Assembly: GCA_964440095.1 (NCBI GenBank)
Contig: CAYTPZ010000002.1
Span: forward strand, 1,764 to 65,763
Origin: an uncultured bacterium
GTDB lineage: Bacteria > Krumholzibacteriota > Krumholzibacteriia > JACNKJ01
Length of the DNA: 64,000 nucleotides
Direction of reading: 5' to 3'
This document shows positions 56,193-59,770 of this stretch, one piece after another. The notes under the pieces were generated by a model. The model did no database searches and was not told the origin of the DNA. It saw only the letters and a list, made by a program, of their open reading frames with translations. Position numbers and translations under genes: made by a program. Position 1 is the stretch's first letter. Each line of letters opens with the position of its first letter.

Positions 56193-57629
56193 ATGTCTCT
56201 GCATGTGTACGATCCCATCCGCAAAAAGAAGGTCGAGTTCCAGCCCGTCCAAGACGGCAAGGTGGGAATGTACTTCTGCGGCATGACTGTTCAGGGTGAA
56301 CCCCATGTGGGACACATGCTTGCGGCTCTCACAGGCGATATGGTTCGTCGCTATCTGGAGTACAAGGGCTTCGAAGTCACCTTGGCCCAGAACTTCACGG
56401 ATATCGACGATAAGATCCTGGCCAAGGCGGCCGAGGAGGGCGTGAGCTATCAGGAAGTGGCCCAGCGGAACATCGACCTGTTCTTCAAATTCTCCGATGC
56501 CCTGAACATTCAGCACGCGACGGTCTATCCCAAAGCCACCGAGCACATTGCGGAGATGCACGAGATCATCGAGAAGCTCATTGAGAAGGGTCACGCCTAC
56601 GAGTCCAATGGTGACGTCTATTATAATGTGAAGAGCTTCGACGACTACGGCCGTCTTTCCGGACGCCGGGTCAACGAGCTGAGATCCGGCGTGCGTGTGG
56701 ATGTGGAAGACGGCAAGCGCGACGACCTGGATTTCGCTCTCTGGAAGAGCGTTCCCAAGGATGAGCCCGGCTTTGATAGCCCTTGGGGCTGGGGGCGCCC
56801 GGGCTGGCATATCGAGTGCTCGGCCATGAGTATGAAGTACTGCGGCCAAACCCTCGATTTCCATGGCGGCGGTCTGGATCTGAAGTTTCCCCATCACGAG
56901 AACGAGCGCGCCCAGAGCGAGGCGGCCACGGGCCAGACCTTCTCTAACGCGTGGCTGCACAATGGGATGGTGACGGTCCACGGCGAGAAGATGAGCAAAT
57001 CCGATGGGAATTACGTGTCCATGACCCAGCTTCTCGAGTGGTACGAGCCCGAGACGGTGCGCTTCTACCTGCTTTCCACGCACTTCCGCAGTCGGGCCGA
57101 ATTCGACCGCGAACAGCTGGATCGGGCCGGTGTCAGCCTGGATCGTATCAGCGAATTCAGTTTGGGTCTGCACGAGCGCCTGGCCAAGTCGCCCGAGAAC
57201 ATGGAAGTGCAATCCGAAGCAGGACAGGCACTTGTAGCTGCCTCGGCCCAGGCTCTTGAGCGTTGGACCGAGGCCATGGACGACGATTTCAACACGGGCG
57301 GAGCTATCGGCCACATTTTCGAGCTGGTGAAGGAGTTCAATCGCCTGGTGGCCGAAGACGACCAGGGCCTTTCGGCCGACCGCCGAGGTCTTGAGGCTGC
57401 CCGGTCGGCCCTGGAAACCATGGCTGGCGTTCTTGGATTGTTCAAGGACGGTCTTCCGAAAGAGCGGCAACTCGAAGCACCCGAAGAGCTTATGCAGTGG
57501 GTTGCCGATCGCGAGGCCGCCCGGGCCGCAAAGGATTGGGCCGAAGCCGATCGTCTCCGCGATCTTGTGGCCGAAGCCGGATTCGAAATCATGGATGGCG
57601 CGGGTGGAAGTCAGGTTAGGAAGCGTTAA
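56193..57629 (+). CDS. cysS: Cysteinyl-tRNA synthetase
   Basis: CGMTVQGEPHVGH (HIGH region); KMSKS motif present. Confidence 0.9.
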   Translation: MSLHVYDPIRKKKVEFQPVQDGKVGMYFCGMTVQGEPHVGHMLAALTGDMVRRYLEYKGFEVTLAQNFTDIDDKILAKAAEEGVSYQEVAQRNIDLFFKFSDALNIQHATVYPKATEHIAEMHEIIEKLIEKGHAYESNGDVYYNVKSFDDYGRLSGRRVNELRSGVRVDVEDGKRDDLDFALWKSVPKDEPGFDSPWGWGRPGWHIECSAMSMKYCGQTLDFHGGGLDLKFPHHENERAQSEAATGQTFSNAWLHNGMVTVHGEKMSKSDGNYVSMTQLLEWYEPETVRFYLLSTHFRSRAEFDREQLDRAGVSLDRISEFSLGLHERLAKSPENMEVQSEAGQALVAASAQALERWTEAMDDDFNTGGAIGHIFELVKEFNRLVAEDDQGLSADRRGLEAARSALETMAGVLGLFKDGLPKERQLEAPEELMQWVADREAARAAKDWAEADRLRDLVAEAGFEIMDGAGGSQVRKR

Positions 57630-57716
57630 CCGCTGACCGCCAGAAGACTTCTTTTTCGGCTCCGGAGAGGGTGTTTTTCTTGCGGTTAGCGGCTAGCCGT
57701 CAGCGGTTGGCGGCCC
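57627..57716 (+). repeat. Heptad-periodic palindromic element: (TAACCGC, TGACCGC)...40-nt spacer...(GCGGTTA, GCGGCTA, GCCGTCA, GCGGTTG, GCGGCCC)
   Basis: Read directly from the sequence; begins at the cysS stop codon. Confidence 0.6.
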
Positions 57717-57737
57717 TAGCTTTTTTCTGCTATCCCC

Positions 57738-57767
57738 TTGACACTTTTCGACTTTCCACTTTAATAT
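57738..57767 (+). promoter_or_regulatory. Sigma-70-like promoter for the tRNA-tuf operon (TTGACA, 18-nt spacer, TAATAT)
   Basis: Consensus -35 hexamer and a 4/6 -10 hexamer about 130 nt upstream of tRNA-Thr. Confidence 0.5.
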
Positions 57768-57894
57768 GCGCCTCCGGCGTTTTGTGCCGGTAGTCGGACA
57801 GGTGTGGGCGCGGACTCCACAATCCATCTAGCATAGAGGTCCTTCTCAATCCCTCATTGGGAGAGAGGGACATTTGCGCGTAGTGCGCATGAAT

Positions 57895-57967
57895 GCTGGC
57901 GTAGCTCAACTGGTAGAGCTTCTCACTTGTAATGAGAAGGTTGGGGGTTCAAGTCCTCTCGCCAGCT
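57895..57967 (+). tRNA. tRNA-Thr (anticodon TGT)
   Basis: Cloverleaf; acceptor GCTGGCG/CGCCAGC; anticodon loop CTTGTAA. Confidence 0.85.
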
Positions 57968-57988
57968 CCTGATCGGCGGAGTTTTTTT

Positions 57989-58070
57989 GGAGGGGTTCCC
58001 GAGTGGTCAAAGGGATCAGACTGTAAATCTGACGGCGAAGCCTTCGGAGGTTCAAATCCTCCCCCCTCCA
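57989..58070 (+). tRNA. tRNA-Tyr (anticodon GTA), long variable arm
   Basis: Acceptor GGAGGGG/CCCCTCC; anticodon loop CTGTAAA; 82 nt. Confidence 0.85.
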
Positions 58071-58107
58071 CCGACCCGGCAGCGAGGATGAAACCGAGCT
58101 GCTTTTT

Positions 58108-58181
58108 GCGGGAATAGCTCAGCTGGCTAGAGCATCAGCCTTCCAAGCTGAGGGTCGCGGGTTCGAATCCCGTTTCCCGCT
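58108..58181 (+). tRNA. tRNA-Gly (anticodon TCC)
   Basis: Acceptor GCGGGAA/TTCCCGC; anticodon loop CTTCCAA. Confidence 0.85.
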
Positions 58182-58199
58182 CCGTTGTTGAAACAGGGT

Positions 58200-58272
58200 G
58201 CCCAGGTAGCTCAGTCGGTAGAGCACATCCTTGGTAAGGATGAGGTCGTCAGTTCAAATCTGATCCTGGGCT
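58200..58272 (+). tRNA. tRNA-Thr (anticodon GGT)
   Basis: Acceptor GCCCAGG/CCTGGGC; anticodon loop TTGGTAA. Confidence 0.85.
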
Positions 58273-58344
58273 CCGCCTTTCTGCAATCCCGCGCCGCGGA
58301 TAGAGGTGCGGCTCATCCAACGATCCTTAGGAGGTCGACTCGCC

Positions 58345-59535
58345 ATGGCGAAAGAGAAGTTTGAGAGGACAAAGCCGCACGTAAACGTGGGTACGATTGG
58401 TCACGTTGATCACGGGAAGACGACGCTGACGGCGGCGATCACTCAGCGTCAGGGCAAAAAGGGCCTGGCGGATTTCACGCCCTTCGACGAGATCGATAAG
58501 GCCCCTGAAGAGCGCGAACGCGGTATTACGATCGCGACGGCTCACGTTGAGTATCAGACGGAGAACCGTCACTACGCTCACGTTGACTGCCCGGGCCACG
58601 CCGACTACGTGAAGAACATGATCACGGGTGCGGCTCAGATGGACGGCGCGATCCTTGTGGTGAGTGCGGCCGACGGCCCCATGCCCCAGACCCGCGAGCA
58701 CGTTTTGCTGGGTCGTCAGGTGAACGTTCCCTACATGGTCGTCTACATGAACAAGGTCGATCAGGTGGATGACGAAGAGCTGCTGGACCTGGTTGAGCTT
58801 GAAGTTCGCGAACTTCTGAGCGAGTACGAGTTCCCGGGCGACGACATTCCGATCATCCGCGGCAGTGCGCTCCAGGCTCTGAACGATCCCGAGAATGACG
58901 AAGCGAACAAGAGCATCGACGAGCTGATGGAAGCGATCGACAGTTACATCCCCGAGCCGGTTCGTGACACGGACAAGCCCTTCCTGCTGCCCATCGAGGA
59001 CGTTTTCTCGATCACGGGTCGCGGCACGGTGGGCACGGGCCGTATCGAGCGCGGCGTGGTGAAGGTGGGCGACAAGGTTCAGCGCATCGGCATCCGAGAG
59101 ACCCTCGAGACGACGGTGACGGGTGTTGAGATGTTCCGCAAGCTTCTGGATGATGCTCAGGCGGGCGACAACGTTGGCCTGCTGCTTCGCGGCGTTGACA
59201 AGAGCGACCTTGAGCGCGGCATGGTGCTGGCGAAGCCGGGCAGCGTTACGCCTCACACGAAGTTCGAGGGCGAGGTCTACATCTTGACGAAGGAAGAGGG
59301 TGGCCGCCATACCCCGTTCTTCCAGGGCTACCGCCCCCAGTTCTACTTCCGGACGACGGACGTGACGGGTGTTGCGACGCTGCCCGAGGGCACGGAAATG
59401 GTGATGCCCGGCGACAACATCAAGATGGACATTGAGCTGATCACGCCGATCGCGATGGAGGACAACCTCCGCTTCGCCATCCGTGAGGGCGGCCGCACGG
59501 TCGGCGCCGGCGTGGTTACGAAGATTCACGAATAA
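58345..59535 (+). CDS. tuf: Elongation factor Tu
   Basis: [14 protein letters not shown]; DCPGHADY; NKVD; overall EF-Tu similarity; AGGAGG RBS. Confidence 0.95.
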
Positions 59536-59547
59536 GGGAGCCGCGAG

Positions 59548-59697
59548 ATGCGAGAAATCGTTAAGCTACGTTGCACCAAGTGCGAGAAGCACTGGTACAC
59601 GACTATGAAAAACAAGCGGCTTCACCCGGACCGAATCGAGCAGAAGAAGTACTGCCCGCGGGACCGGGAGCACACGGTTTTCAAGGAAGCAAGATAA
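59548..59697 (+). CDS. rpmG: 50S ribosomal protein L33
   Basis: 49 aa; C..C...Y.T.KNK...P.R...KKYCP zinc-ribbon pattern; location between tuf and tRNA-Trp. Confidence 0.8.
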   Translation: MREIVKLRCTKCEKHWYTTMKNKRLHPDRIEQKKYCPRDREHTVFKEAR

Positions 59698-59701
59698 ACG
59701 C

Positions 59702-59770
59702 TAACCGCTATCCGCTTTCCGCAAGCCGCCAGAGAGCGGTCGGCGGTTGGCGGTCGACGGTAAGCGGTTA
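59702..59770 (+). repeat. Heptad-periodic palindromic element: (TAACCGC, TATCCGC, TTTCCGC, AAGCCGC) CAGAGA (GCGGTCG, GCGGTTG, GCGGTCG, ACGGTAA, GCGGTTA), abutting the tRNA-Trp 5' end
   Basis: Read directly from the sequence; same heptad family as 57627-57716. Confidence 0.6.

Follow-up and report, generated by a model that had tools for sequence, protein, structure and literature searches.

Inverted heptanucleotide-repeat hairpins after cysS and around tRNA-Trp in an uncultured Krumholzibacteria-like bacterium

Heptad hairpins and their described relatives

In many bacteria, tandem repeats of a seven-nucleotide unit outnumber all other long simple-sequence repeats; the class is established yet unexplained, and polymerase slippage has been suggested as its origin (Mrazek 2007, as cited in PMC4679880 and PMC4692102). 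Here we analyze three intergenic elements, A, B and C, that pair such heptads in inverted orientation after cysS and on either side of tRNA-Trp. They lie in a 64,000-nt stretch of DNA (herein the window; contig CAYTPZ010000002.1 of assembly GCA_964440095.1, positions 1,764 to 65,763) from an uncultured marine lineage. By NusG and CysS, the named relatives closest to it are Latescibacteria and Krumholzibacteria metagenome-assembled genomes (MAGs).

The closest described systems are the GGGAATC repeats of Xanthomonas and the GGGGA(C/T)T repeats of Nostoc, for which Rehm et al. (2015) proposed G-quadruplexes and found them to form in vitro (PMC4692102). These heptamers prefer four units, lie 0 to 50 nt after the upstream stop codon, and keep their site between species while varying in length and sequence; X. 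campestris has 70 convergent inverted pairings among 186 repeats, and Nostoc has few inverted pairs (PMC4692102). TAACTGA repeats occur in marine Beggiatoaceae, cyanobacteria and Bacteroidetes, with one of 170 Beggiatoa sets inverted (PMC4679880), and CspB has been reported to bind heptamer repeats (as cited in PMC4679880). Geobacter metallireducens carries 4x GGACCGG / 5x MTYCTGA elements, those of four heptads in 49 copies, some of them inside genes (PMC2700814). A Nostoc preprint describes regulatory effects of heptamer repeats and postulates a heptamer-binding partner.

The gene order in the window is cysS, a promoter, tRNA-Thr, tRNA-Tyr, tRNA-Gly, tRNA-Thr, tuf, rpmG, B, tRNA-Trp, C, secE and nusG, with A between cysS and the promoter; all three elements are intergenic and occupy transcribed spacers of a highly expressed unit. 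As RNA they form hairpins of 60 to 100 nt whose stems are interrupted at 7-nt intervals by a mismatch or a small internal loop. A sequence-only reading of the window had placed A at 57627-57716 and B at 59702-59770 as in-register CCGC/GCGG heptads, A opening on the cysS stop codon and B ending at the 5' end of tRNA-Trp, with arms able to pair through their cores every 7 nt; all of this was borne out. That reading did not include C (59852-59916), a third heptad hairpin of the form (AGTCGCM)4-loop-(GGAGACT)4.

Element A has a 2+5 layout. Its left arm (TAACCGC TGACCGC; 57627-57640, forward strand, as for all arms below) carries the cysS stop codon (TAA, 57627-57629) in its first heptad, and is followed at 57641-57681 by an inner hairpin and TGTTTTTCTT, which together look like a first terminator (a terminator scan flags the stem at 57650-57671). 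The right arm comprises five heptads (GCGGTTA GCGGCTA GCCGTCA GCGGTTG GCGGCCC; 57682-57716). In the minimum-energy fold the left arm pairs with 57682-57692, within heptads 1 and 2 of the right arm, and the remainder folds on itself into a stem-loop, GCUAGCCGUCA-GCGGU-UGGCGGC-CC-UAGC (57692-57720), with T6 directly after it (57721-57726); together these make up the predicted intrinsic terminator of cysS (57692-57726). The GC-rich stem-loop and T6, with TTGACA-18-TAATAT 12 nt further on, have the intrinsic terminator form, whereas B and C lack a U-run. A is a composite hairpin whose 3' part, together with T6, has the form of the cysS terminator.

Element B has a 4+5 layout. The left arm (TAACCGC TATCCGC TTTCCGC AAGCCGC; 59702-59729) starts 4 nt past the rpmG stop codon, the loop is CAGAGA (59730-59735), and the right arm (GCGGTCG GCGGTTG GCGGTCG ACGGTAA GCGGTTA; 59736-59770) runs to the RNase P site of tRNA-Trp, its last base being base 1 of the tRNA. 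The CCGC/GCGG cores are in register and allow four core pairs. A and B have 16 of 20 nt in common, including bases outside the repeat. Element C, with a 4+4 layout, starts 7 nt past tRNA-Trp: left arm AGTCGCC AGTCGCA AGTCGCA AGTCGCC (59852-59879), loop AGGGAAACAT (59880-59889) and right arm GGAGACT CGAGACT GGAGACT GGAGAC (59890-59916). The right arm stops 16 nt short of the secE start codon (59933); GGAG recurs in it at 7-nt intervals, close upstream of the ribosome-binding site of secE. RNA folding, proposed in the sequence-only reading as a check on A and B, gave -48.1 kcal/mol for A (z -3.4 to -3.9), -41.5 kcal/mol for B (z -4.5) and -31.1 kcal/mol for C (z -4.3), all far better than shuffled sequences. 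Against the covariance models of Rfam 15, only the five tRNAs reach the gathering score, and no RNA family is assigned to A, B or C; at E<=1 there is only a spurious miRNA-precursor match on C (22.8 bits against a threshold of 95).

The periodicity is far above chance. Tandem Repeats Finder (TRF) reports period-7 arrays in the window at 10253, 59699, 59736, 59852 and 59889, together with a 2.3-copy ACTGAGA repeat at 15875 (15875-15890), and a scan by lag likewise yields five arrays of period 7, with lags 8 to 12 empty. In 100 dinucleotide-preserving shuffles the mean was 0.07 period-7 arrays and the maximum one. CCGCN3CCGC occurs 15 times (8.2 expected), ten of them within A, B and a half-element at 10255-10283 described below; with one mismatch allowed, the three-unit CCGC pattern has 11 occurrences (2.1 expected; 0/100 shuffles reach 11), all but one falling within the same three places. 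The window holds four heptad sites in 64 kb, three of them within one 2.3-kb stretch, and no further copy of either heptad type beyond those four.

The layout of A, B and C, tandem heptanucleotide repeats paired in inverted orientation, is that of a class already described as short tandemly repeated repetitive (STRR) sequences and as the Xanthomonas and Nostoc heptamers. The class calls for three or more head-to-tail 7-nt units, in line with the five period-7 arrays above; A, B and C are non-coding and close to an upstream stop codon or, for C, in the tRNA-Trp to secE spacer; and they are convergent inverted pairs with about four units per arm (4+4 in relatives). Like the Xanthomonas and Nostoc repeats they are intergenic, just past a stop, paired as stem-loops, and fixed in site while variable in sequence. 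They differ in that the heptads have no G3 tracts, so that the proposed G-quadruplex is inapplicable, in that whole heptad families swap at one site between close relatives, and in that two hairpins bracket a tRNA in an uncultured marine host. The C unit AGTCGCC differs at a single variable position from cyanobacterial STRR1 (CCCCAGT, rotated AGTCCCC), which is also non-coding; STRR sequences, however, are very numerous and mostly stand as lone direct arrays, whereas the elements here are paired hairpins and rare. The TAACTGA and Geobacter elements are similar in being short arrays of two to six heptads (four in Geobacter), dispersed, mostly intergenic, patchy across phyla and suspected of a post-transcriptional role, but are direct arrays of other units that mostly end 1 nt before start codons. 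Repetitive extragenic palindromic (REP) sequences and bacterial interspersed mosaic elements (BIMEs), known as mRNA 3' stabilizers, are likewise imperfect extragenic palindromes in transcribed spacers past stop codons, forming stable hairpins placed to block 3' exonucleases; unlike them, the arms here are internally periodic, and the 64-kb window has neither the GTAG head nor a copy number in the hundreds (four sites), nor was a RAYT (Y1 transposase) gene identified, though no search aimed at one was made.

Turnover in close relatives and recurrence in other phyla

Position A was compared across four lineages, namely the window and the contigs L255, L002 and L256, whose CysS homologues are 94%, 87% and 86% identical to that of the window. 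Between the cysS stop codon and the T-run lie four hairpins that cannot be aligned with one another. The window has CCGC heptads; L255 has (AGTCTCC)4 ... GACTGGC GGCTGGT GGCTGGA (-54 kcal/mol, z -4.4); L002 has TCTTGGC ... GCCAAGA GCCAAAA GCCGAGA GCCAATG; and L256 has a GC-rich hairpin without heptads. Three of the four are therefore heptad-built, from three different heptads. The folds are good in all lineages except L256, and the stems end at the U-run. Both arms have changed jointly, from TAACCGC/GCGGTTA in the window to TCTTGGC/GCCAAGA in L002, with complementarity kept. Starting at GCTTTTTT, about 80 columns that run through the promoter and reach the leader are unchanged but for two (alignment of window 57612-57790). 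Position A offers a clean natural experiment: between a fixed stop codon and a T-run and promoter that do not vary, four close relatives have four unrelated hairpins. The hairpin sequence turns over faster than synonymous sites, and on this comparison it is the hairpin that persists, at the terminator site at least, and not the sequence of its unit. Its presence before the T-run in every lineage while the sequence is replaced is the strongest functional evidence that A acts as the cysS terminator.

At 57721-57894, the T-run, promoter and leader (the last in at least its first part) are far more conserved than neutral expectation, given a synonymous divergence of up to 0.3, and have no Rfam match; one possible role of this stretch is as a regulatory leader for the tRNA-tuf operon.

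For positions B and C, an exact look-up of the L33 protein returned ten contigs, five of which represent the window population (0 to 2 differences in 3.3 kb). The others include L002 (GCA_964344565.1; 4-fold-site divergence from the window 0.30) and L009/L010 (GCA_014382085.1; 0.10). In both L002 and L009, C is kept and position B carries a C-type rather than a CCGC-type hairpin, so that 4+4 AGTCNCC/GGNGACT arms stand at both positions; B in L002 reads GAGTCGCC AGCCACC AGTCGCC AGTCGCC - loop - GGAGACT CGGGACT GGAGACT GGTGACT. In these lineages B and C have the irregular units AGCCRCC and CGRGACT in common, which argues that they are copies of one element and not independent slippage products. 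Since the window is closer to L009 than to L002, its CCGC-type B is a recent replacement. After the swap, B is a local hairpin of similar strength (-40 kcal/mol in the window against -43 and -34 in the relatives) that can no longer pair with C, which indicates that the local hairpin is what is retained. B and C thus fill the spacers directly 5' and 3' of tRNA-Trp in a genus-level clade, and the families of the two hairpins that bracket the tRNA swap independently.

Two further JGI contigs, L003 and L004, are identical to the window from tuf on; upstream, L003 has a divergent cysS context and L004 has rpoC-rpsL-rpsG-fusA. Both probably result from assembly that joined the two tuf copies, or different populations, and, as different contexts joined at tuf, were excluded as independent evidence upstream of that gene.

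Conservation within C is uneven. Its right arm is nearly unchanged in three lineages, with 0/27 nt differing from L002 where about eight differences would be expected of neutral sequence, and its left arm drifts (4/28 nt). In the more distant L251 (NusG 75% identical), position B has a non-heptad 70-nt hairpin (-37.9 kcal/mol) and position C a 40-nt direct copy of the left half of that hairpin, so that the two copies flank the tRNA. Among the distant relatives L252-L254 (NusG 64 to 82% identical) the rpmG to tRNA-Trp spacer measures only 10 to 14 nt, with no significant structure on either side of the tRNA and no period-7 array in 62 kb.

Additional copies were found on a second contig of GCA_964344565.1 (L125, contig 7), which has two more 4+4 AGTCNCC/GGNGACT hairpins at 2510-2825 (minus strand). 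One opens a 5' untranslated region, with a TTGACA/TAGTGT promoter directly before it; the other is in frame inside a long open reading frame (ORF) and would encode ...VSSHQSPAARKKAGDWRLGTGDS..., resembling in this respect the in-gene copies of Geobacter.

We also searched one genome per species with the pattern GGAGACT-NGNGACT-GGNGACT, for which about 17 chance matches are expected in the collection. At least 120 loci matched, counts that are lower bounds and do not give quantitative taxon frequencies. The matches listed come from Nostocales (many arrays), Chloroflexota, Planctomycetota, Acidimicrobiia, Bacteroidota, Omnitrophota, Acidobacteriota and further groups, a genome often having several; L125 is one of them, and C-like hairpin pairs are present in L022, L044, L026, L091, L113 and numerous Chloroflexota. 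The C heptad with its 4+4 layout recurs, among these matches, in Acidimicrobiia, Planctomycetota, Omnitrophota, Bacteroidota and cyanobacteria. In 849 kb of the matches listed (120 loci holding (GGNGACT)n) there are about 380 period-7 arrays and 32 of period 8; for some 30% of the former an inverted partner lies within 60 nt, and arrays of four units are the commonest. In the Gemmataceae MAG L030, a 140-nt heptad hairpin, (AGTCTCC)n-loop-(GACTGGN)n at 4686-4825, fills the spacer between tRNA-Asn and tRNA-Gly, starting 12 nt after tRNA-Asn; it is an independent case of a heptad hairpin adjoining tRNAs.

A metagenome scan with CCGCN3CCGCN3CCGCCAGAG gave matches that, among those listed, are mostly chance occurrences inside GC-rich coding sequence; they include about ten unrelated CCGC-type heptad hairpins and no further CCGC-type copy from the window organism. 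The sequence-only reading had framed A and B as a CCGC family flanking tRNA loci. The elements themselves are real, and the framing proved too narrow: CCGC is one lineage-specific flavor of a broader class of heptad hairpins, and although B does adjoin tRNA-Trp, the 3' flank of that tRNA carries a different flavor (C), and A, separated from the tRNA cluster by a promoter, belongs to cysS.

Among metagenome contigs, L191, L209, L214 and L248 have nested or adjacent hairpins of two or three heptads in one spacer, e.g., (CAGCCAA)n (CCGCTAC)n ... (GTTACCG)n (CTGTTGG)n, which indicates that heptad families can stack concentrically.

Transcript ends and competing explanations

The reading we favor, with a probability of roughly 0.55, is that the three elements are RNA hairpins with fast turnover, one of which would terminate cysS while the other two would cap the mRNA ends left by excision of tRNA-Trp. 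Behind the end-protection logic stand the general properties of RNase P, of 3' exonucleases and of 5'-end-dependent decay. An RNase P cut at 59770 would leave a tuf-rpmG mRNA ending flush with hairpin B, where 3' exonucleases would be blocked, as they are by REP and terminator hairpins. Processing of the tRNA-Trp 3' end would leave a secE-nusG mRNA that begins 7 nt before hairpin C, which could then serve as a protective 5' stem-loop; the rpmG to secE interval contains no promoter-like site. Among the roles listed in the sequence-only reading, a terminator or RNA-processing structure is the best supported, by the hairpin and T6 before a promoter, the presence of a hairpin in four lineages and the position of B at the RNase P site. 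If this is right, end-capping around tRNA-Trp would give heptamer repeat pairs a concrete RNA-processing function.

The 7-nt periodicity itself would most likely be a by-product of origin, through slippage of units within an arm and copying between arms or elements, and not a functional requirement. Complementarity of the arms could be kept by selection for the hairpin or by hairpin-templated repair. The CCGC flavor would be a lineage-specific derivative that replaced older AGTCNCC-type hairpins at A and B. Because (AGCCGCC)n can equally be read as (CCGCCAG)n, it plausibly arose from an AGCCGCC variant of AGTCGCC; B has AAGCCGC-CAG as its innermost unit, and CCGCCAG closes the half-element.

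Several observations weigh against this reading. The processing and stability logic is carried over wholly from principles established in E. coli and B. subtilis. The absence of B and C from the distant relatives marks them as dispensable additions and not as essential elements, and the in-frame copy in L125 fits repeat insertion better than a terminator. For C, compensatory changes were sought among the window, L002 and L009 and none was seen; conservation of the right arm without compensation suggests a constraint on sequence and not on pairing. C-type hairpins are slightly more stable as antisense, and in a crude cross-phylum sample the sense RNA is the more stable in only 8/24 cases. None of the 31 classifiable pairs in the cross-phylum sample lies between convergent genes; these gene calls came from a crude longest-ORF caller whose 26 assignments to the inside of an ORF are probably inflated, and only qualitative trends were used.

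A serious rival, though we hold it to be the lesser chance, is that the repeats are neutral or selfish: products of slippage and template switching, or dispersed elements resembling REPs or MITEs (miniature inverted-repeat transposable elements), that settle in tolerant spacers, with any termination or end protection incidental. Wholesale hairpin replacement between lineages whose 4-fold-site divergence is only 0.1 to 0.3 would be expected of such elements, as would the paralogous B and C of L002 and L009, the direct copy flanking the tRNA in L251, the extra copies elsewhere in a relative's genome, the absence of the hairpins from more distant relatives, the lack of a sense-strand stability bias and the similarity of A and B outside the repeat. 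Published surveys also ascribe the 7-nt repeat excess to polymerase slippage (as cited in PMC4679880 and PMC4692102). However, every lineage keeps a hairpin immediately before the strictly conserved T-run, so at least the hairpin at A appears functionally required, and the C right arm is far more conserved than neutral sites. Unit number is constant among 5, 3 and 2 independent assemblies of three lineages, a comparison of low power, as these assemblies differ by <=3 single-nucleotide polymorphisms per 3.3 kb. No target-site duplication is visible at the borders of B or C in the window, L002 or L009, the whole element itself being an inverted repeat, and the density of sites is not REP-like. 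The REP/MITE-like repeat proposed in the sequence-only reading may apply in view of the hairpin swaps and the extra copies in one relative, but the GTAG head and the copy number of REPs are not seen.

We consider it unlikely that (AGTCNCC)4-loop-(GGNGACT)4 is a discrete element of about 65 to 70 nt, and not a random slippage product, that spreads or regenerates across phyla because a conserved cellular machine recognizes the 7-nt unit. The phyla would be those of this Krumholzibacteria-like lineage, Acidimicrobiia, Planctomycetota and Omnitrophota, with cyanobacterial STRR1 as the direct-array form; cassettes would overwrite terminator or spacer hairpins by conversion, which would account for the family swaps at A and B.

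More doubtful still is an array bound by a protein in 7-nt register, whether a double-stranded DNA binder of the omega type or a single-stranded RNA binder with cold-shock or S1-type domains (6 to 7 nt each), reading GGNGACT or GCGGNNN. Omega repressors, of the ribbon-helix-helix family, occupy arrays of direct or inverted heptads, each heptad taking one dimer. Their operators consist of contiguous WATCACW heptads, whereas here the unit differs and the arms are separated by a loop. The conserved AGTC-N-CC / GG-N-GACT core with a free position N, the conservation of the C right arm without compensation and the recurrence of the C heptad and 4+4 layout from Acidimicrobiia to cyanobacteria would all suit a binding site, as would the report on CspB (cited in PMC4679880) and the partner postulated in the Nostoc preprint. 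Set against this, the element at B persisted through a change to an unrelated heptad, site A is filled by three different heptads and by one hairpin without heptads, the left arm of C drifts in a way not tolerable for a symmetric DNA site, and no candidate binding protein emerged. The 7-bp-register binding array of the sequence-only reading has precedent but gained no support here.

Two remaining explanations are very improbable. A long-range stem, in which the right arm of B pairs with the left arm of C, or the left arm of B with the right arm of C, across the tRNA for RNase III-type excision of tRNA-Trp as for rRNA, is possible on paper in L002 and L009, where the two belong to one family; it founders on the stability of the local hairpins (-31 to -43 kcal/mol), on distant relatives that process tRNA-Trp without flanking repeats and on the window itself, where CCGC-type B and GACT-type C are not complementary yet both hairpins are kept, and was rejected. 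G-quadruplex or i-motif elements, with four units supplying four G-tracts as proposed for GGGAATC and GGGGACT, would match the four-unit arms that are the rule here too and a published class that folds in vitro (PMC4692102), but were likewise rejected, as no arm of A, B or C contains GGG (only GG with 5-nt spacers) and the C-rich left arms on the same strand form hairpins of -31 to -48 kcal/mol that would outcompete a two-tetrad structure; that the four-unit preference persists in heptads unable to form G-quadruplexes argues against these structures as the general reason for the number four.

Other features of the window

The half-element at 10255-10283 (forward strand) reads TGGCCGC TGGCCGC TAACCGC CAGAGCGG and comprises a left arm and the start of a B-like loop without a right arm; around its CCGCCAGAG junction it looks like the interior of B. 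Its position is upstream of a minus-strand gene with a FlgD_ig domain. The sequence is as the sequence-only reading had described it, but the fold is not above that of shuffles (z -0.4), and the half-element is weak taken alone.

Around the three hairpins, cysS occupies 56193-57629 (forward strand), and a consensus sigma-70-type promoter (TTGACA, 18-nt spacer, TAATAT; 57738-57767, forward strand), which lies outside the repeat, drives the tRNA-Thr/Tyr/Gly/Thr-tuf-rpmG unit after a leader of 125 nt. The four-tRNA cluster spans 57895-58274, tuf 58345-59535 and rpmG 59548-59697 (stop codon 59695-59697). tRNA-Trp, with a CCA anticodon and a CCA end that is not encoded, lies between B and C at 59770-59845 (forward strand), and secE (59933-60130) is followed by nusG. 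Within the tRNA cluster, a terminator-like hairpin followed by T7 is found at 57964-57990, between tRNA-Thr and tRNA-Tyr.

Elsewhere in the window, TRF reports a 12-nt repeat, TGCGCGAGCGCC, in 3.2 copies at 28935-28972. A hairpin with hexamer-repeat arms (GCCATA GCCATA / GGCTGT GGCTAT) is found at 35630-35687, after a gene ending at 35616, and is followed by a T-rich tail and then a TTGACC...TTTAAT promoter-like site; it is a predicted terminator built from a 6-nt, not a 7-nt, repeat.

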